A DNA stretch of 64,000 nucleotides from an uncultured Anaerolineae bacterium (GTDB lineage: Bacteria; Chloroflexota; Anaerolineae; Anaerolineales; Villigracilaceae), in contig CAKZJX010000022.1 of assembly GCA_937120535.1 (NCBI GenBank), positions 9,895 to 73,894 of the forward strand. Reading direction: 5' to 3'. The translations under genes were made by a program, and so were the position numbers. How positions within the stretch are numbered: the stretch's first letter is position 1; each line of letters opens with the position of its first letter. Below, one piece after another: positions 6,086 to 51,043 of the stretch. The notes under the pieces are model-generated. The model did no database searches. It saw only the letters and a list, made by a program, of their open reading frames with translations, and was not told where the DNA came from.

Positions 6086-6424
6086 GGGAGTGGATAAAAA
6101 GGGGATTTTTTCACACCGAGACACAAAGACACGGGGAGGCTCTATGGTCTACGTGTTGGGTTCCCATGCGGCTCACGTTGCACGGCGGGGTGGAGGCCGG
6201 ATCCCAAGCACAGGCCGACCCCGAAGGGAAGAACGCCAAGTTAGGCCAGGATCTCGCTTGCCTGGCGCGACGCTCGCGCTGTTTTTCGCGTGGTCCAGAA
6301 GCCTGGAAGGCAGCCTGGAAGATTTTTCTGTACTGCTTCCACTGCCGTCCATGGCGCAAGCAGCGTTTTCCGAACTATCCCGCTCATATGTTTCAGTTTA
6401 TCAACCCATAATTTAGCCGCTCCC
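6086..6424. mobile_element. MITE-like element, family 1, copy 1 (339 bp)
   Basis: Imperfect TIRs GGGAGTGGATAAAA / ATTTAGCCGCTCCC (11 of 14 match); alignable end to end with the reverse complement of 29776-30108, including an identical 58-nt core (6180-6237). Confidence 0.8.
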
Positions 6425-6607: not shown

Positions 6608-7837
6608 ATGTCCATCTTTCATGACAAACGCATTTTGCTCGGGGTTAGCGGTTCGATCGCTGCCTACAAATCAGCCGATCTAGCCTCCAAACTGACCCAG
6701 GCGGGGGCGCATGTGGATGTGATCTTGACCCCTGGCGCCGAGAAGTTTATCACGCCGCTCACCTTCCAATCGGTTACCGGACGCCGTGCATACACCGACG
6801 CCGATCTATGGGGTGGTGAGGCTCATGTCCTCCATGTCGGTCTAGCCGATCAAGCCGACCTGCTGGTGATTGCGCCGTGCACGGCCCACACGCTGGCCAA
6901 GCTAGCCCACGGACTAGCCGATTCCCTCTTGACCATCACCGCTTTAGCCTATCGCGGCCCTCTGGTGTTGGCCCCGGCCATGGACGGCGGCATGTACGAA
7001 GCGCCGGCCACTCAAGCCAATCTAGAAACGTTACGCAAGCGAGGCGCAGTGGTGATCGGGCCGGCGGAAGGGCACCTGGCCTCCGGCCTGGTTGGCAAGG
7101 GGCGTATGGTAGAGCCGGCCGAGATCCTGGGACATTTGCGGTTGGTCCTGGGACGCAACGGGCCCCTGGCCGGCCGATCAGTCCTGGTCACCGCCGGCGG
7201 GACGCAGGAGCCGCTCGACCCGGTGCGCGTGCTGACCAACCGATCCTCTGGCAAACAAGGCTACGCCCTGGCCCAGGCCGCTCTCGATGCCGGCGCCCAG
7301 GTCACCCTGATCAGCGCGCCCACTGCCCTCACCCCGCCGGTCGGCGCCCGCCTGATCCCCGTGGAGACCGCCCAACAGATGCTTCAGGCGGTGCTCACCG
7401 AACTGCCCTCCACCGATGTGCTCCTCATGGCCGCTGCCGTAGCCGACTTTCGCCCGCAACAGGCGGCTAGCGAAAAAATCAAGAAACCTAGCCGAACTCC
7501 GGACGCGCCGGCATCGCTGATCGTCCTCGAGACCACAGAAGACATCCTGGGTACGGTGGCCCGCGCTCGGTCAGAGACGAAACGTCCGCTTGTTGTGGTA
7601 GGATTCGCTGCCGAATCCCAAAACCTGATTGAGAACGCCCTCGAAAAACTCCACAGCAAACAGATCGACCTGATCGTCGCCAACGACATCACTGCCCCCG
7701 ACGCCGGTTTCAACGTGGACACCAATCGCGTCACCTTGCTTGCGGCTGATGGCACCCAAGAGAGCCTGCCCTTGATGAGCAAAGCTGAAGTGGCAGAAAT
7801 CATCATCAAGCGTGTCCTTGCGCTGTTGGAGACATGA
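6608..7837 (+). CDS. coaBC: Bifunctional phosphopantothenoylcysteine decarboxylase/ligase
   Basis: ILLGVSGSIAAYK, APCTAHTLAKLAHG, PAMD, VTAGGTQEPLDPVR..TNRSSGKQG, VGFAAES; start moved to ATG 6608. Confidence 0.95.
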   Translation: MSIFHDKRILLGVSGSIAAYKSADLASKLTQAGAHVDVILTPGAEKFITPLTFQSVTGRRAYTDADLWGGEAHVLHVGLADQADLLVIAPCTAHTLAKLAHGLADSLLTITALAYRGPLVLAPAMDGGMYEAPATQANLETLRKRGAVVIGPAEGHLASGLVGKGRMVEPAEILGHLRLVLGRNGPLAGRSVLVTAGGTQEPLDPVRVLTNRSSGKQGYALAQAALDAGAQVTLISAPTALTPPVGARLIPVETAQQMLQAVLTELPSTDVLLMAAAVADFRPQQAASEKIKKPSRTPDAPASLIVLETTEDILGTVARARSETKRPLVVVGFAAESQNLIENALEKLHSKQIDLIVANDITAPDAGFNVDTNRVTLLAADGTQESLPLMSKAEVAEIIIKRVLALLET

Positions 7838-17979: not shown

Positions 17980-17987
17980 TAAAATTT

Positions 17988-18151
17988 GGGCTTGTTCAAT
18001 AAATCTCTCTGGATGGTACAAACTATCTCTAGAAGAGCCACAAGCAGGCCGTTTGACCCTTGAATCGGCGGCTGATTGCATCGCTGATCCCCTCCTATGC
18101 TTGCTCTACCAGGCTCTCCTTGCGCTTCAAGAGTGCTTATTGAATAAGCCC
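17988..18151. mobile_element. MITE-like element, family 2, copy A (164 bp)
   Basis: TIRs GGGCTTGTTCAATAA / TTATTGAATAAGCCC (14 of 15 match); 143/164 identical by hand alignment to the reverse complement of 29159-29322. Confidence 0.85.
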
Positions 18152-18240: not shown

Positions 18241-19443
18241 TCAGGGCGGTGGCAGGAAGTTCCAGGGATTCACCTTGTAGGAACCATGCATCAGTTCAAA
18301 GTGGAGATGGGCTCCCGAGGAGCGGCCAGTGGAGCCAATGGCGCCGATGGTTTGTCCACGGCCAACGCTCTCGCCGCAACTTACCCAAATTGAGCTGAGA
18401 TGAGCGTAGAGCGATTGCCAGTTGTCACCGTGATCGATCATGATCATGTTGCCGTAGCCGCCATCGTGCCAGCCGGCATAGACCACCACACCAGCATCCG
18501 CAGCGTAGACCGGATCGCCCGTCTGGCCGGCCAGGTCAATCCCCCAGTGATTGGTCTCTGGGCTGTAATCGTAACCGGAGAGATAACGGCGTCCGGTAGG
18601 CCAGACGTAGGAACCATAGCCAACCGCTCCTCCCTGAACTGGTCCGCAAGCACCGGGTCCCCAAGCACGGGCAATGGCCGGATCGTTGCGTGAGATGCCG
18701 AATGGGGCGTTCCAGGTGGTGAATTCTCGGCGACCGCCAGGGATGATCAACCACGTGCCCCTGGGGATGTTGGGGTTAGTGTAGTCGCCAACGGCGTCTG
18801 GATCGAGTTTGTTGCCGGGGTATTCGATAATATCGCGCGCAGTTACGCCGAAGTAGCGCGCCCAGGCCTCAAAGTTGATCCCTCCCAGCCATTCGTGGTA
18901 GACGCCGTCCACAGGTAGGATGTTGAGTTCTTGCCCCGGACGAAGGGCATGGGGATCGTCAGCCAGGATATTGTAGTTTCCCCACAGGATGGTTTGAGGT
19001 TTGAGCCCGAATTTCTCGGCGATGCCGAAGACGGTATCCCCCGGCTGGACGACGTATTTGAGGATTTCCTGGCGAGGACGGGTGGGAATGATGGTATGGG
19101 GTTGGGCAGAGCGCGCCAGGCCGAGCAAGGGGGTATCGGTGGCAGGCGGAAGACGATCTAAGGTCGGAGGGAGGGGGGCGGTTGAGTCGGCTATGAGAGC
19201 AGATACCGGCCGTAAGAACGAAGGGGCTTGCTCAAAGAACAGCTCCAAAAGCCAGAGGGCGGCGGCGATCAGAACGATCGTGAGAACGGTGGTGCCTAAC
19301 CTGAATAGACCCTCACCCAGGCCGATTTGGAACAGTGTTCGAAGCCAGCTGGGCAAAGCGTTCATTAGAGAGACGCCCGCCGAAGCCAGCAGATTTTCTG
19401 TGGATGGAAGGGGACGATCGTTGTTGTCTAGGAAAGGTTCCAT
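18241..19443 (-). CDS. LysM domain plus M23 peptidase, membrane-anchored cell-wall hydrolase
   Basis: TM segment; LysM YVVQPGDTVFGIAEKFGL; M23 HWGIDLA, SLYAHL, STGRSSGAHLHFE. Confidence 0.9.
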   Translation of the reverse strand: MEPFLDNNDRPLPSTENLLASAGVSLMNALPSWLRTLFQIGLGEGLFRLGTTVLTIVLIAAALWLLELFFEQAPSFLRPVSALIADSTAPLPPTLDRLPPATDTPLLGLARSAQPHTIIPTRPRQEILKYVVQPGDTVFGIAEKFGLKPQTILWGNYNILADDPHALRPGQELNILPVDGVYHEWLGGINFEAWARYFGVTARDIIEYPGNKLDPDAVGDYTNPNIPRGTWLIIPGGRREFTTWNAPFGISRNDPAIARAWGPGACGPVQGGAVGYGSYVWPTGRRYLSGYDYSPETNHWGIDLAGQTGDPVYAADAGVVVYAGWHDGGYGNMIMIDHGDNWQSLYAHLSSIWVSCGESVGRGQTIGAIGSTGRSSGAHLHFELMHGSYKVNPWNFLPPP

Positions 19444-29158: not shown

Positions 29159-29322
29159 GGATTTGTTCAATAAGCATCCTTGACGCAAAAGGAGAGGCCG
29201 GTAGAGCAGGCATGGGAGGGGATCAGCGATGGAATCAGCCGCCGATTCAGGGATCAAACGGCCTTCTTGCGGCTCTTCTAGAGACAGTTCGTACCATCCA
29301 AAGAGACTTATTGAACAAGCCC
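29159..29322. mobile_element. MITE-like element, family 2, copy B (164 bp, inverted relative to copy A)
   Basis: Ends GGATTTGTTCAATAAG / CTTATTGAACAAGCCC; gap-free alignment to the reverse complement of copy A. Confidence 0.85.
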
Positions 29323-29331
29323 CAATTTCGC

Positions 29332-29360
29332 TTGACAACCTACTCGACCAGGATTACAAT
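29332..29360 (+). promoter_or_regulatory. Strong sigma70-type promoter of the tRNA operon
   Basis: TTGACA-17 nt-TACAAT, 29 nt upstream of tRNA-Phe. Confidence 0.8.
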
Positions 29361-29389: not shown

Positions 29390-29465
29390 GCCGAGATAGC
29401 TCAGTTGGTAGAGCACGCGACTGAAAATCGCGGTGTCGCCAGTTCGATTCTGGCTCTCGGCACCA
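29390..29465 (+). tRNA. tRNA-Phe(GAA)
   Basis: GCCGAGA/TCTCGGC acceptor stem, CGCGA-CTGAAAA-TCGCG anticodon arm, TTCGA T loop, encoded CCA. Confidence 0.97.
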
Positions 29466-29469
29466 GGAC

Positions 29470-29541
<72 letters not shown>

Positions 29542-29554
29542 CTCAATGTCATAC

Positions 29555-29625
29555 GGCGTCGTGGCCAAGTGGTAAGGCAAGGGTCTGCAAAACCCTGACC
29601 ACGGGTTCGAATCCCGTCGACGCCT
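29555..29625 (+). tRNA. tRNA-Cys(GCA)
   Basis: GGCGTCG/CGACGCC acceptor stem, AGGGT-CTGCAAA-ACCCT anticodon arm; CCA not encoded. Confidence 0.95.
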
Positions 29626-29661
29626 CAGCTACTAGCTTAGATCGTTGCATGCCACCCCTCT

Positions 29662-29683
29662 GCGCCGCCAGGCGCTTTTTGTT
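29662..29683 (+). terminator. Intrinsic terminator of the tRNA operon
   Basis: GCGCC-GCCA-GGCGC followed by TTTTTGTT. Confidence 0.65.
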
Positions 29684-29775
29684 CTTAAAAACGTGACAGT
29701 AATCGGGAAACAGAACAAAAAAAGAGGTCTCCTACTAACATTAGGATGAACTCGTCTACAGCTGAGATATAATCG

Positions 29776-30108
29776 AGGAGTGGCGAAATTTAGGTTCGAT
29801 AAACTCATGAGCAGGATAACTGGAAAAACGCTGCTTGCGCCATGGACGTCGGTTGAAGCAGGACATCAAACGTTTCCAGGCTGCTTGCAAAGCTTCTGGA
29901 CCACGCAACAAGAAAAACAGCGCGAGCGTCGCGCCAGGCGAGCGAGATCATTGCCCAACTCGGCGTTCTTCCCTTCGGGGTCGGCCTGTGCTTGGGATCC
30001 GGCCTCCACCCCGCCGTGCCAAGCGACTCACATGGGAACACGTAGATCACAGAGACTTCCCGCGTCTTTGTGTCTCTGTATGAAAAAATTCCCTTTTTAT
30101 CCACTCCC
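29776..30108. mobile_element. MITE-like element, family 1, copy 2 (333 bp) with 8-bp target-site duplication
   Basis: Ends AGGAGTGGCGAAAT / TTTTATCCACTCCC; flanked by direct repeat TATAATCG at 29768-29775 and 30109-30116; inverted relative to 6086-6424. Confidence 0.88.
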
Positions 30109-30125
30109 TATAATCGTTAAATGCT

Positions 30126-33100
30126 ATGAGATCCTATCCTCCGTTTTATCGTTTCGCCTTCGATATTGCTTCTGAAGGCATCTTTCAAGCCAGCTTCAGA
30201 GGGGGATACATACACGTCAACGCTGCCATGGCTAGAATGTTTGGCTACACTTCACCGAACGAAATGATCGACTCGGTTGAAGATATTGCCCAAGACATCT
30301 TTGTTCTCCCAGACGAATATCGACGTTTCCAGGAAGAACTGAAAACCAAAGGGGCAATTGACCAATTCCGAACTCTACAGAAACGTAAAAATGGAACGAT
30401 CTTCTGGGTCTCGTACCGGGCATACGCCATCCGAGACTCAAAAGGCCGGCTCCGATCGTACATTGGTTTCGTCCAAGATATTACCCAACAAAAAAACATC
30501 GAGCTGGTGTTGGAACGCGTCGATAGCATGCTTCCCTCCCATCAAAGCTTGCTCGAAAACCTCCCCGCCGCTATATACATTGACACAATGAGCCAAGACC
30601 CCACCATAGGCTTCTACATTAGCTCGCACATTAAAACCATTAGCGGATATTCCCCAACCGAATGGAGCGGACGTGGCTTCTGGGCGAAAGTGATTCACCC
30701 CGACGACTACCCGAGCTTTGAGCGAGAAAACGAACGCACCGACCGAACCGGCGATCGCTTTGATATGGAATACCGCCTGATCCACAAAGATGGCCATATC
30801 GTCTGGGTACGCGATATTGCGACGGCCGTATGTGATCCCAAAGGCAAACCGATTTATTGGCAAGGGATCATGGTGGACATTACAGCTCAAAAACGGCTGG
30901 AGGAAACCATCCGCCACAGTGAAAGCCGTTTTCGGAAGGTGTTTCACAACAGCCCGGTAGCTATCTGCATTACCACGCTTGAGGAAGGGATTTTCCTGGA
31001 TGCTAACAAAGCCTATTTGACTCTGTTTGGCGTCTCTCGCGAACAGCTCATCGGTCGTTCGATTGTGGATTTAGGCATCACCGATGCGGCAACCCGTGCT
31101 CGCTGGGTAGCCGACTTACAGGCTGCCGGCGGTTTGCTGCGCAATCAACTGTTTTCGTTTCTCACTATGAACGGCGAGGTCTTACAAACCTTGGCGTTCT
31201 ACGAAATCGTTGAGCTAGAGGGCAAAAAAGCTATCCTCTCGATGTTCAACGACATCACCCCTCGCGTTCAGGCCGAACGTGCTCTGCGCAAGAGCGAAGA
31301 ACGCTATCGAGCCCTTGTCGAGAAATTGCCCGGCATAGTCCTCTTGCGCTCGGCGGAGAACACGCTGGTGACGCTATACATCAGTCCCCAGGTGGAGACC
31401 ATTCTGGGCTACACCTCGGAAGAATGGTTGGCCGATCCCGAATTCTGGGAGAAAGCTCTTCACCCCCTTGACCGAGAACACATCATTGAAAAAATCCGGC
31501 AAGCGACCCAACAGCAAAAGCCCTTTCACGCAGAATATCGCATGCTGAGTCGCTATGGCGCCATCGTTTGGATCTATGAGCAATCCCATCTGATCTACTC
31601 AAATGGTCATCCTACCTATTGGCAAGGATTTCTGCTCGATATTACCAGCAAGCGCGAAGTTCAAGAAGCCCTTGGAGAAGTTGCCGAAGTCTATCGCGGT
31701 CTGTTCGATAGCATCCAAGAAGCCATTTACGTCCAGGATTGGAACGGTCGCATCTTGGATGCCAGTCTGGGAGCCGCCAAGATGTACGGCTATCCCAGAG
31801 AAGCTTTCCTAGGAAAAACCCTGCTCGACTTCGCTGCGCCCGACAAAAACGATATCAACGCCCTGCGCCAAGCGTCAGAACAGGCCTTTGAAGGTATCCC
31901 CCAACAAGTGGAATTCTGGGGGCAACGCAGCAATGGCGAGATCTTCCCTCAAGAGGCTCGCTTCTACAAAGGCAATTACTTCGGGCAAGATGTGATCTTC
32001 GTCATTGCCCAAGACATCACTGAGAGAAAAAAGGCTCAAGAGGCCCTCGAGCGCCGGTTAAGAGAACTATCTATCCTACACGAATTGGCGCTGGAAGCCG
32101 GCCGTATTTTGAACGAAGATAAATTGATCAAGCGCGCCGGCACAATTATCCAACGCATCCTGTCCCCCGATCGGTGCACGTTCATCCTACTCAGCAATGA
32201 TGAGCGCTATCTCTATGTCCATCCGGCATCTCTGGGTCATTCGGGTGAACAGCAAACAATCTATCCGATCGAACACGGAACCATAGGGGCTGTGGTCATC
32301 ACCGGCCAGCCAGTCAGGGTTCACGACACGCGACGCAGCAAACACTATCCTCCTCTAGATGCAGAGATGCGTTCTGTGCTCTGCGTTCCGATGAAAATCG
32401 GTCAGCGGGTGATCGGGGTGATCAACCTTGAAAGCGCTCGGCCCGGCCAATTTACCGAAGATGACGAAAGGTTGTTGACCACCATTGCCGGCCAACTAGG
32501 GCCGGCCATCGAACGACTGCGAACCGAACGAGCCGAACGCGAACAGCGTCTGCTTGCTGAAGCGTTGCGAGACATTGCCTCTGCCCTGAACAGCACTCTG
32601 GACTTCAATACTGTCCTTGATCGCATCTTGGAGAATATCGGGCGCGTTGTTCCTAGCCTTGCCGCCAGCATTATGTTGATAGAAGACGACATGGCTCGTC
32701 CGATCCGTCATCGCGGTTTTTCCGAACGCGGACTGGGAGACTGGATGGACTCCTTGCGCCTAGACTGTCGAGCCATTCCCAACCTCCGGCGCATCCTGGA
32801 AACTGGCCTGCCCGATCTCATCCCCGATACCCACAATTGTCCAGAATGGATCGTCTTCCCCCAGACGGCGTGGATCCGCTCCTACCTAGCTGCGCCGATT
32901 AAGACCGATCACAAGATCATTGGCCTTCTCTCGTTGGATCACGATCAGCCCAATTTCTTCCAACAGCAAGATGCCGAACGGTTGGTGGCTTTTGCCAACC
33001 AGGCGGCCTCGGCCATCGAAAACGCTCGGCGCTACGAAGAGGAAGTCCGTCGCGCTCGCATCATTGAAACTCTGGCTGAGATCGCCAACCTTATCGCCAC

Positions 33101-35648
33101 CAACCATGACACGGAATTCCTCATCAACGAGATCGCTCAACGTTCTCTCCAACTGCTGCGAGCTAGAAATGTGGCTGTATATCTGATGGAAGAGGACAAC
33201 CAGACCCTCAAAGTAGTAGCCGCCAAAGGAGACTACTCCCAGACCCTGCTCTCTCATACCATCACGGTCGGTCAAGGGATCACCGGGCATGTGGTCCAGT
33301 CGGGCCGAGCCGAGATCATTCCCCAAATTGACCTTGATCCCCGCCGACGACACATCCCAGGCACCCCTCAAGAAGAACCTCCCGAAACCATGATGTCGGC
33401 GCCGCTGTGGTTGCGTGACAAAGTGATCGGTGCGATCAACGCCTGGCGTTTGCGAGAACATGGGGTTTTCACTGAAACCGAACTCAATTTTCTCGTGAGC
33501 ATCGCTCATCAAATCTCCATTGCCATCGAAGCCGGTCGGTTGTTCCAAGAGCTGGCACGTCGCGCTCGCGAGGCCGAAGCCATCGCCGAGGTGGGCCGGC
33601 AAATCTCCGCCACGTTGGACTTGAACGTAGTCTTGGAACGAATTGCCACCTATGCCAAGGAACTCCTACGCGCCGAAACCAGTGCTGTGTACATTGCCGA
33701 GCCGAACTCAACCCACTTGCACGCCGTGGCTGCACTTGGCAAGGATGCGGAGGCGCTAAAAAACGATCCGCTCTCCCTAGGCCACGGCATTCTCGGCAAT
33801 GTCGCCCTTCAAAAACGTGGCGAGATGATCAACAATGCTGAAAGCGATCCGCGCGCCCTCATCGTCCAAGGCACCGAAGCCACGCCGTTTGAACACATCA
33901 TGGGAGTTCCGATCCTGATCCAGGACGAATTGACCGGATTGCTGGCTGTCTGGCGTACTGGTCCGGGGCAAGAATTCAATCCGGCCGAATTGACCTTCTT
34001 GACCAACCTAGCTCAACAAGCAGCGATTGCTATTCAAAATGCCCGTCTCTTCCATGCAGAACAACAGCGCAGACAAGAAGCCGAAACCCTGCGTGAAGCC
34101 ACTGCGATTGTGGCCGCCACCCTAGACCTGAATCGCACCATTCAGGTCATTCTCGACCAACTAGCTAAGGTATTGGAGTATGACAGCGCTTCGATTCAAC
34201 TCTTGCGCAACGGCTGGCTAGAAATCGTGGGTGGGCATGGCTGGCCAAGCGATCAACCCTTGATCGGGATGGGATTCCAAATCCCAGGCGACAATCCGAA
34301 CACTCTTGTCATCCAACAACGGCGCCCCTTGATTGTCAATGTCTCCCAAAGCCCCCACTTGCTATTCCGACAGCCGCCCCATCATCATATCAAACACTGG
34401 CTAGGGGTGCCGCTGATCGCACGCGGCGAGACCATCGGTATGCTCACCGTAGAACGTTTTACCGAAGACGCTTTCAACGAAGAACACATTCGGCTGGTTA
34501 CGGCCTACGCCAACCAAGCTGCTATTGCAATTGATAACGCTCAACTGCATGAGCAACTTGAAAAACAGATCCGTCGTCTAACTTCCTTGCGTGAGATAGA
34601 TATCGCAATTGCTTCTAGTTTTGACATACGGGTAACGCTAGCTATCTTGCTCGAAAACGCCCTATCTCAATTGCGCGCCGATGCCATGTCCGTCTTGATA
34701 CACAACTCGGCCATGCAAGCTCTAGAAACTGTAGCGTCACTCGGGTTTAGAAATCCGTTGAGAAAACGCCGCGTTCACCTTGGTGAAGAGCTGGCTGGCC
34801 AGGTTGGCATCCAGCGCAAACCCTTGCAGCTTCACCAGATCAGTCAACTTCCCCAACACAGTTATATCCCCTGGCTTGCCGAAGAAGAATTCTCAACCTA
34901 TATCGCTTATCCCCTGATTAGCAAGGGACAACTCAAGGGCGTCCTAGAAGCCTTCTTCCGAACCACTTTCTCCCCCGACCGTGACTGGCTCGACTACATG
35001 CAAACCCTGGCCGGCCAAGCTGCTATCGCCGTGGACAACACCGAATTGTTTGAAAACCTACAGAGAACCAATCAAGAGCTGGCCCTGGCTTATGACACCA
35101 CCCTGGAGGGCTGGGGACGGGCGCTAGAGCTGCGCGACGAAGAGACCGAGGGCCACACCCGTCGCGTAGCGGAGCTCACCATCCGCCTGGCGCGCCGAAT
35201 CAACCTCAGCGATAGCGAGCTCGTTCACATCCGAAGAGGGGCCCTGCTGCATGACATCGGAAAAATGGCCATTCCCGACCGCATTCTGCGCAAGACTGGT
35301 CCGCTGGATGATGCCGAATGGGAACTGATGCATAAACATCCGATCTACGCCTACCAGTTGCTCTACCCCATCACCTATCTGAGACCTGCGCTCGATATTC
35401 CCCTCTACCACCACGAGAAATGGGACGGGACCGGCTATCCTTACGGGCTCAAAGGGGAACAGATCCCATTGCCGGCCCGCATCTTCGCCGTGGTAGATGT
35501 CTGGGATGCCCTGCTCTCCGACCGACCTTACCGAAAGACCTGGTCGCGAGAACAAGCGATGGAATATGTTCGCAACGAAGCGGGTAGCCGCTTTGATCCG
35601 CGGGTTGTGGAAGTCTTCCTAAAGATGATCGAAGAAGAAAACATATAA
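30126..35648 (+). CDS. Multi-sensor HD-GYP phosphodiesterase (about 5 PAS, 6 GAF, HD-GYP)
   Basis: 1840 aa; repeated PAS/PAC (IHPDD, HPLDRE) and GAF (LCVPMKIG, YLAAPI, MSAPLW, MGVPIL, LGVPLI, IAYPLI) units; LLHDIGK...HHEKWDGTGYP. Confidence 0.9.
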   Translation: MRSYPPFYRFAFDIASEGIFQASFRGGYIHVNAAMARMFGYTSPNEMIDSVEDIAQDIFVLPDEYRRFQEELKTKGAIDQFRTLQKRKNGTIFWVSYRAYAIRDSKGRLRSYIGFVQDITQQKNIELVLERVDSMLPSHQSLLENLPAAIYIDTMSQDPTIGFYISSHIKTISGYSPTEWSGRGFWAKVIHPDDYPSFERENERTDRTGDRFDMEYRLIHKDGHIVWVRDIATAVCDPKGKPIYWQGIMVDITAQKRLEETIRHSESRFRKVFHNSPVAICITTLEEGIFLDANKAYLTLFGVSREQLIGRSIVDLGITDAATRARWVADLQAAGGLLRNQLFSFLTMNGEVLQTLAFYEIVELEGKKAILSMFNDITPRVQAERALRKSEERYRALVEKLPGIVLLRSAENTLVTLYISPQVETILGYTSEEWLADPEFWEKALHPLDREHIIEKIRQATQQQKPFHAEYRMLSRYGAIVWIYEQSHLIYSNGHPTYWQGFLLDITSKREVQEALGEVAEVYRGLFDSIQEAIYVQDWNGRILDASLGAAKMYGYPREAFLGKTLLDFAAPDKNDINALRQASEQAFEGIPQQVEFWGQRSNGEIFPQEARFYKGNYFGQDVIFVIAQDITERKKAQEALERRLRELSILHELALEAGRILNEDKLIKRAGTIIQRILSPDRCTFILLSNDERYLYVHPASLGHSGEQQTIYPIEHGTIGAVVITGQPVRVHDTRRSKHYPPLDAEMRSVLCVPMKIGQRVIGVINLESARPGQFTEDDERLLTTIAGQLGPAIERLRTERAEREQRLLAEALRDIASALNSTLDFNTVLDRILENIGRVVPSLAASIMLIEDDMARPIRHRGFSERGLGDWMDSLRLDCRAIPNLRRILETGLPDLIPDTHNCPEWIVFPQTAWIRSYLAAPIKTDHKIIGLLSLDHDQPNFFQQQDAERLVAFANQAASAIENARRYEEEVRRARIIETLAEIANLIATNHDTEFLINEIAQRSLQLLRARNVAVYLMEEDNQTLKVVAAKGDYSQTLLSHTITVGQGITGHVVQSGRAEIIPQIDLDPRRRHIPGTPQEEPPETMMSAPLWLRDKVIGAINAWRLREHGVFTETELNFLVSIAHQISIAIEAGRLFQELARRAREAEAIAEVGRQISATLDLNVVLERIATYAKELLRAETSAVYIAEPNSTHLHAVAALGKDAEALKNDPLSLGHGILGNVALQKRGEMINNAESDPRALIVQGTEATPFEHIMGVPILIQDELTGLLAVWRTGPGQEFNPAELTFLTNLAQQAAIAIQNARLFHAEQQRRQEAETLREATAIVAATLDLNRTIQVILDQLAKVLEYDSASIQLLRNGWLEIVGGHGWPSDQPLIGMGFQIPGDNPNTLVIQQRRPLIVNVSQSPHLLFRQPPHHHIKHWLGVPLIARGETIGMLTVERFTEDAFNEEHIRLVTAYANQAAIAIDNAQLHEQLEKQIRRLTSLREIDIAIASSFDIRVTLAILLENALSQLRADAMSVLIHNSAMQALETVASLGFRNPLRKRRVHLGEELAGQVGIQRKPLQLHQISQLPQHSYIPWLAEEEFSTYIAYPLISKGQLKGVLEAFFRTTFSPDRDWLDYMQTLAGQAAIAVDNTELFENLQRTNQELALAYDTTLEGWGRALELRDEETEGHTRRVAELTIRLARRINLSDSELVHIRRGALLHDIGKMAIPDRILRKTGPLDDAEWELMHKHPIYAYQLLYPITYLRPALDIPLYHHEKWDGTGYPYGLKGEQIPLPARIFAVVDVWDALLSDRPYRKTWSREQAMEYVRNEAGSRFDPRVVEVFLKMIEEENI

Positions 35649-50846: not shown

Positions 50847-51043
50847 TGCCCTCCTCCCGCCGTGATACCCCAGGCGCTCATACCCTTCAAAGGCATCGCT
50901 GTAGAATATCGGGCTTTCGGCGCTTCGTCCACGATTGACTGCCGCTGCCGGTTTTTCCGGCTCGGCTTTGTCGTTCGGTTCGGTGACATCTTGGACACTC
51001 TATCATGTCGCTATTTTAGCCCAGTTTTGAGCCATTCCCGACC

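Follow-up and report, generated by a model that had tools for sequence, protein, structure and literature searches.

An IS1-family MITE upstream of an HD-GYP gene in an uncultured Anaerolineae bacterium, and the duplication of a probable leaderless -10 box

The window analyzed here (the whole stretch of 64,000 nucleotides, from contig CAKZJX010000022.1 of an uncultured Anaerolineae bacterium) carries a large PAS/GAF/HD-GYP (HD_5) gene (30126..35648, plus strand) and, just upstream of it, a 333-bp miniature inverted-repeat transposable element (MITE) of the insertion sequence (IS) family IS1. The element occupies positions 29776..30108, on the minus strand when it is oriented by its ancestral transposase. 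It begins with a terminal inverted repeat (TIR) derived from the IS right end (IRR, 29776 to ~29790), continues with a remnant of the InsB C-terminus (~29801-30021, minus strand, by tblastn) and finishes with a TIR derived from the IS left end (IRL, ~30094-30108). The octamer TATAATCG abuts it on both sides, matching at 8 of 8 positions, and contains the hexamer TATAAT. The distal copy of this target-site duplication (TSD; 29768..29775, plus strand) combines the native -10 hexamer (29768-29773) with native upstream DNA, while the DNA upstream of the proximal copy (30109..30116, plus strand; hexamer 30109-30114) is the end of the MITE (…TTATCCACTCCC). An earlier note, made from the letters of this DNA alone, had described a 333-bp element between two such octamers, with one -10 box pointing into the MITE and the other taking its upstream context from the MITE end, and this arrangement is seen in the sequence. 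The overall explanation preferred here, with a probability of about 0.8, is that an IS1-type MITE inserted at the -10 box of the gene, that the TSD duplicated the box, that a copy of the box was thereby kept beside the gene and that the gene tolerated the insertion.

The HD-GYP gene is intact, as judged from its translation, Pfam matches and orthologue alignments. The 1840-residue product combines 4-5 PAS with 6 GAF domains and has its HD-GYP domain at the C-terminus (PF13487 HD_5, 134 bits; PF01966, 72 bits), and the translation includes the motif HHEKWDGTGYP, which is of the HHExxDGxGYP type. By its HD superfamily domain and this motif the protein is a predicted phosphodiesterase of cyclic di-GMP (c-di-GMP). 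The 5.5-kb open reading frame (ORF) has no stop and no frameshift and keeps every domain. Its ATG (30126-30128) lies 11 nt after the proximal hexamer, which ends at 30114, and an in-frame TAA at 30111-30113 means that no start further upstream is possible. Between the two lies a mini-ORF, ATG-CTA-TGA (30121..30129, plus strand), whose ATG follows the proximal hexamer by 6 nt and whose TGA overlaps the HD-GYP start (ATGA). The earlier note had given the 11-nt distance and the overlapping mini-ORF correctly. The sequence before 30126 contains nothing like a Shine-Dalgarno (SD) motif. Further upstream, a cluster of tRNA-Phe(GAA), tRNA-Gly(GCC) and tRNA-Cys(GCA) genes (29390..29626, plus strand; ARAGORN, Rfam tRNA matches and synteny with congeners by BLAST) is followed by the intrinsic terminator of the tRNA operon (29662..29685, plus strand; GCGCC-GCCA-GGCGC and then TTTTTGTTCT, by terminator scan), which shields the HD-GYP gene from tRNA transcription. 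An equivalent GC hairpin with a T-run is present 3′ of tRNA-Cys in all relatives.

That the octamers are a genuine TSD is established by the other copies of the element. Comparison by BLAST with the whole assembly (3.11 Mb, 140 contigs, 57% G+C) gives 41 matches, 21 of them full-length at 80-96% identity and ~20 partial, several of the partial ones at contig ends. Copy length is 331-357 bp. All full-length copies terminate at identical bases, so that 20 others share the boundaries of the window copy. The TIRs are imperfect (GGGAGTGGCTAAA / GGGAGTGGATAAA; GGGAGTGGCTAAATT… and …CCCTTTTTATCCACTCCC at the ends of the full-length copies), and the consensus ends are GGGAGTGGCTAAATT and GGGAGTGGATAAAAAGGG. 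Flanking 8-mers that match at 7 or more of 8 positions, and that differ from copy to copy, border 12/21 full-length copies, against 0.7% of shuffled left/right flank pairings; 4-5 further copies have, by eye, 7-bp or boundary-shifted duplications. Individual TSDs of 7-9 bp accompany the majority of copies. An exact 8-mer repeat would not by itself be significant in this region, where 900 bp contain 13 families of direct repeats of at least 8 nt, and the repeat counts as a real TSD because both copies of TATAATCG abut the termini of a multicopy element. The MITE and TSD of the earlier note are thereby confirmed.

Two subfamilies emerge from the alignment of the 21 copies, and indels of 5 and 6 nt distinguish them. 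The copy beside the HD-GYP gene is a member of subfamily A, whose consensus it matches at 92.9% identity (7% divergence). A second full-length copy in the window (6086..6424, minus strand; G000:C22:15980-16318) belongs to subfamily B, is 82.5% identical to the first and is without a clean TSD. Conservation along the element is fairly uniform (0.78-0.96 in sliding windows), and no specially conserved core stands out. No ORF is conserved among the 21 copies, and the subfamily indels break the frames; the element's RNA shows no folding beyond that of shuffled sequence (z = -0.08), and the Rfam scan found tRNAs only, with no match to the MITE. It is a MITE in the usual sense, i.e., a short, non-coding, TIR- and TSD-bearing, high-copy element. 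Because the TSDs of the other copies are heterogeneous, with no preference for promoters or AT-rich DNA, the hit on a -10 box looks like chance. The family is confined in its distribution: BLAST finds it in none of 13 other species of the genus, and a 24-mer from its core has 0 matches among 185,579 species representatives.

The parentage of the element follows from its ends and its body. TIR-like matches outside the MITE lead to short elements in contigs C30, C31, C59, C75 and elsewhere, in which GGGAGTGGCT(C/T)AAAA… precedes a TAAAAT that stands 6 nt before the ATG of a protein with a zinc ribbon plus an HTH (helix-turn-helix). In the decayed copies of this genome the zinc-ribbon protein scores 26.8 bits on Zn_ribbon_InsA PF03811 (cut-off 26.1), and a Pfam search of the genome with DDE_Tnp_IS1 yields C59:468-812 (26.1 bits, cut-off 24.1), which has 2 stops and overlaps a stretch homologous to the left end of the MITE. 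The assembly holds only decayed copies of the parent IS, namely C59:378-968, which has stops, and fragments in C30, C31, C75 and C93. An exact-pattern scan locates the IS left end in three other metagenome-assembled genomes (MAGs) whose titles name a Chloroflexota or Anaerolineae bacterium. In one of the three, a Chloroflexota MAG, there is an apparently intact IS of 791 bp with the same ends as the MITE consensus (L034:4111-4901). Its TIR is GGGAGTGGCTAAA and its TSD GCTATCTG(G), and its insA and insB are connected by a slippery A8 run. Its proteins score 28.7 bits on PF03811 (cut-off 26.1) and 37.2 bits on HTH_23; InsB by itself reaches 21.9 bits, which is under the Pfam cut-off. The conceptual InsAB′ fusion, in which the two frames were joined manually at the A-run, reaches 131.6 bits on NF033558 transpos_IS1 (NCBIfam, cut-off 100) and covers the full profile.

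The homology extends well into the MITE. In a global alignment, positions 1 to ~280 of the MITE consensus are collinear with the last ~285 bp of the L034 IS in reverse orientation, and tblastn recovers InsAB′ residues ~166-244 in more than 30 MITE copies at 50-70% identity, including the window copy (29801-30021, minus strand; residues 168-242). The marks of the IS1 family are all present in the MITE or in the L034 IS: imperfect TIRs starting GGnnnTG, TSDs of 8-9 bp, insA and insB with an A-run, and body homology beyond the TIRs. The GGnnnTG rule is the one used by ISfinder for IS1 ends. The TIR of an ISAba3-like member of the family (GGTGGTG…, with 8-bp TSDs) is consistent with it (PMC6382973), and a related Anaerolineae IS1 in L023 has the ends GGTAGTGG. 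By sequence, then, the MITE is a non-autonomous internal-deletion derivative of an IS1-family element, made up of the IRR, ~270 bp of the insB 3′ end (now non-coding) and ~20-25 nt of the left inverted repeat. The earlier note had left the family open and named IS256 and ISL3 as families with such TSDs; these do not apply, since InsAB′ scores only 26 bits on transpos_ISL3 (cut-off 180) and 20 bits on IS1249 (cut-off 300). Within the 140-contig assembly tblastn gave pseudogene fragments only and no intact transposase of this lineage, and self-BLAST of the genome's repeats of at least 500 bp gave no autonomous copy with these TIRs. An active IS could be present and unassembled, many MITE copies being at contig ends.

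Several further traces of mobile elements surround this family. Within the left inverted repeat of the parent IS, TAAAAT stands 6 nt before the ATG of insA (L034:4111-4901; G000 C30:439, C31:424, C59:~1000). This amounts to a promoter of the leaderless type and parallels PIS1, which lies in the IRL of Escherichia coli IS1. An isolated fragment at 50929-51006 of the window (minus strand; G000:C22:60823-60900) encodes the first 26 residues of an IS1-type InsA, 81% identical to the L034 protein, and is another relic of the parent IS. G000:C89 (~18790-18840, minus strand) contains a mini-element of 53 bp in which the IS left end (GGGAGTGGCTTAAAAATGGGCTAAAAT…ATGATAGAATGT) passes straight into CCACTCCC, without an evident TSD. 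Another repeat family, with members ~165-170 bp long, is represented by roughly 70 genomic copies; those in the window lie at 29163-29322, just upstream of the tRNA operon promoter, and at 17987-18151. Copies of the IS1-type MITE are often inserted at the edge of this repeat, and a 513-bp composite of the 170-bp element and the MITE recurs in C73, C118 and C127 at 95-98% identity. The MITE copy at G000:C96:31153-32377 breaks off after ~133 bp, where the remains of a decayed transposase of the IS110 family (DEDD) intervene, which suggests an IS110-type element that targeted the MITE.

The identity of the duplicated hexamer is given by related species. In seven congeners (G002, G003, G008, G009, G011, G012, G013) the tRNA-Phe/Gly/Cys genes, the terminator and the HD-GYP gene occur in the same order; congener orthologues share 55-67% protein identity, with alignments that begin at residue 1 or 6. 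None of the seven has the element. Their spacers measure 100-260 bp and contain a single CTATAAT before the ATG, at 6 nt in five species and at 7 nt in two. Subtraction of 341 bp from the window spacer leaves 158 bp, inside the congener range, and the junction then reads …GCTGAGATATAATCGTTAAATGCTATG…, a congener-like architecture. Apart from the MITE, this species differs by 5 extra nt between box and ATG. A further congener, L006 (G010:C1), has a ~97-bp unit with the 3′ part of tRNA-Cys and the terminator repeated in tandem about four times upstream of the orthologue (~6700-7105 of the locus), and its orthologue aligns only from residue 256.

The same box is a recurrent signal in this genome. 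Genome-wide, TATAAT stands 6, 7 or 8 nt ahead of the start (ATG or GTG) of ORFs with 150 codons or more in 26, 40 and 15 cases (81 in total), against ~5 at each other spacing. Leaderless genes are marked by a TA-like signal ~12 nt upstream of the start codon, which in Chloroflexi takes the form TAtaaT (PMC3160421). TATAAT at 6-8 nt from the start thus points, in this organism, to leaderless mRNAs made from -10-only promoters that lack a -35 element. Because CTATAAT is conserved in the seven empty-site congeners and agrees with this genome-wide signature, the conclusion that TATAATCG contains the real -10 box of the HD-GYP gene is well supported, and the duplicated "putative -10 box" of the earlier note gains a firm footing. 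As an empty-site check, the note had proposed a search for the single octamer in relatives or in minority reads; the congeners provide it, the metagenome contigs do not.

A reference set of 162 TAnAAT leaderless-type promoters of this genome indicates how much upstream DNA matters. These promoters hold essentially no information upstream of -9 and no -35 element, and show only weak preferences, for T at -5 and for G at -2 and -1. Scored against them, the 12-nt upstream context of the distal copy has -0.04 bits (21st percentile of the 162), whereas that of the proximal copy, supplied by the MITE end, has -4.92 bits, below all 162. The claim of the earlier note that the insertion separated the gene from its original upstream promoter DNA, and so rewired c-di-GMP signaling, is accordingly to be divided: little promoter DNA was lost, comparable promoters being without a -35 or upstream information, while the 12-nt extended -10 context did become worse. 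Judged on sequence, the regulatory rewiring is probably modest. The terminator scan finds no terminator on the plus strand of the MITE and a terminator-like site on its minus strand (29936-29918, in the insB remnant). No MITE-specific outward promoter is predicted, and the TAAAAT promoter of the IS itself is missing from the MITE. The tRNA-Phe/Gly/Cys operon has a promoter of another kind (29332-29360), a near-consensus two-box arrangement of TTGACA, 17 nt and TACAAT, in contrast to the leaderless promoters found elsewhere in this genome, which have a -10 only.

The course of events is as follows. The MITE family expanded to roughly 40 copies in one Anaerolineae/Chloroflexota species, and one copy transposed into TATAATCG, 6 nt upstream of the transcription and translation start region of the HD-GYP gene. 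The staggered cut produced an 8-bp duplication, as is typical of IS1, and with the -10 hexamer inside the octamer the box is now present twice. One -10 box therefore still stands at the original distance from the gene, so that the duplication appears to have largely repaired the damage that the insertion would otherwise cause. Initiation from the proximal box at a predicted transcription start of ~30121 is somewhat favored, probably at reduced strength because no poorer extended -10 context than that provided by the MITE end is seen in this genome. The distal box probably starts transcripts near 29780 (predicted), pointing into the MITE. Since the one terminator-like site of the MITE is on its minus strand, read-through into the gene is plausible, and such transcripts would reach it with an SD-less leader of ~345 nt. 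Because of the 5 extra nt between box and ATG, the 5′-terminal AUG of a leaderless transcript from the proximal box would be that of the 2-codon ORF. Ribosomes might then reinitiate on the main ORF where the two overlap (AUGA), which is a speculative possibility.

The plus strand of the element also contains an open frame (29780-30175). A GTG in the MITE TIR, 6 nt after the distal TATAAT, opens 131 codons across the whole element, and the frame ends 50 nt into the HD-GYP gene. It is probably accidental, because the frame from this GTG closes after 4-10 codons in 8/21 copies, among them 6/8 of subfamily A.

Some observations weigh against the reading of a kept proximal promoter and a tolerated insertion. 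The ATG at the canonical spacing belongs to the 2-codon ORF and not to the HD-GYP gene: the hexamer lies 6-7 nt before the start in 7/7 congeners, and in the window 6 nt before the ATG of the 2-codon ORF and 11 nt before that of HD-GYP, a spacing represented genome-wide by 4 cases, which is background level. The empty site is known only from other species, at the protein identities given above, and in the metagenome contigs, from which records of the window's own genome may be absent, there are 0 matches both for the 27-mer of the empty-site junction and for a 23-mer of the left flank that would catch either allele. The position weight matrix behind the context scores is low in information (mean 1.2 bits, sd 1.6), which makes the weakening of the proximal promoter suggestive only. 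Finally, the 7% divergence of the window copy may predate its insertion, which softens the argument that the gene has long stayed intact beside it.

The strongest alternative, although an unlikely one, is that the insertion silenced the gene: the proximal -10 would be dead, the gene would be poorly expressed, if at all, through the long SD-less leader of the distal promoter, and the ORF would be intact since the insertion is recent. This fits the proximal context score, where the rarest base (C, 9%) stands at the most informative position, -2, as well as the missing SD-like sequence before 30126 and the TSD that is still perfect. Yet this promoter class is almost without upstream information, so that the -10 alone may suffice, and a copy 7% diverged from its subfamily consensus faces a 5.5-kb ORF that is undamaged in every domain. 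The intact gene mildly favors tolerance over silencing. A more elaborate variant of the preferred explanation is clearly doubtful, that in which the TSD acts as built-in promoter repair, the native-context promoter launches the leaderless 131-codon GTG frame, and HD-GYP is translated by termination and reinitiation after the 5′-terminal two-codon ORF (AUGCUAUGA). If true, it would represent a natural case of MITE-made tandem promoters and of de novo ORF birth at a c-di-GMP signaling gene.

Slightly less credible still is an adaptive rewiring, in which the MITE would add regulation to the c-di-GMP phosphodiesterase gene, e.g., by way of a regulator site, a 5′ leader with structure or antisense transcription from the IRL-like end. 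The tandem-promoter geometry, with a distal TATAAT 6 nt from a GTG that opens 131 codons, lends itself to this idea, and MITEs with outward promoters are documented (PMC6382973). Against it stand the fold, which is no better than shuffled and matches nothing in Rfam, the early closure of the GTG frame in other copies and above all in subfamily A, the lack of the TAAAAT promoter and of any predicted outward one, and the TSDs of other copies, which show no promoter preference. A coincidence of two octamers, with the element boundaries lying elsewhere, can be dismissed: frequent as exact 8-mers are in this region, the 20 other full-length copies that end at exactly these bases, the flank statistics and the congener architecture restored by taking out the element and one octamer reject it.

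That an IS or MITE can land in a promoter and duplicate its target is textbook knowledge. The case in the window, an IS1-family MITE in a promoter, is an ordinary and well-documented type of event, and what is neat about it is the regeneration of a leaderless -10 box by the TSD; it changes no current concept. Its value lies in the particulars. A lineage-specific MITE burst in an uncultured Anaerolineae genome now has an IS1 assignment and a full-length relative, and the MITE copies at contig ends explain part of the fragmentation of the assembly. Independently, the comparison of congeners shows where the promoter and the start codon of a large c-di-GMP phosphodiesterase gene lie. With two copies of one hexamer, the first next to native and the second next to foreign upstream DNA, the locus offers a clean natural test of whether leaderless transcription in Chloroflexota needs no more than a -10 hexamer.

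Three known systems invite comparison. IS1 of E. coli has 768 bp, insA and insB with a -1 frameshift at an A-run, a zinc finger, an HTH and a DDE domain, and a promoter within the IRL (PMC12428005). The window MITE resembles the IS1 family in a TIR that starts GGGAGTG, which fits GGnnnTG, and in the TSDs of 8-9 bp. The L034 relative does so in its 791 bp with insA (zinc ribbon and HTH), A8 run and insB (DDE), in an InsAB′ that passes the cut-off of the NCBIfam IS1 equivalog, and in a -10 box inside the IRL just before insA. In contrast to the family, the window element is a 333-bp non-coding deletion derivative, and the Chloroflexota lineage is only distantly related to enterobacterial IS1, as the sub-threshold Pfam score of InsB alone illustrates. 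With the bacterial MITEs that alter expression (MITEAba12, Correia elements; PMC6382973) the element shares small size, TIRs and TSDs, multiple non-coding copies and an intergenic position immediately upstream of a gene start; it differs in having no evident outward promoter of its own and in that the TSD itself regenerates the host -10 box, which is unusual. Leaderless -10-only promoters, with TANNNT ~12 nt upstream of the start codon, occur in Actinobacteria, Deinococcus and Chloroflexi (PMC3160421, PMC4007540, PMC4633059). The HD-GYP genes of the congeners and the 81 TATAAT sites of this genome conform to them, with the hexamer 6-8 nt before the start and no -35, whereas in the window the main ATG lies 11 nt from the hexamer and a 2-codon ORF takes the leaderless position.

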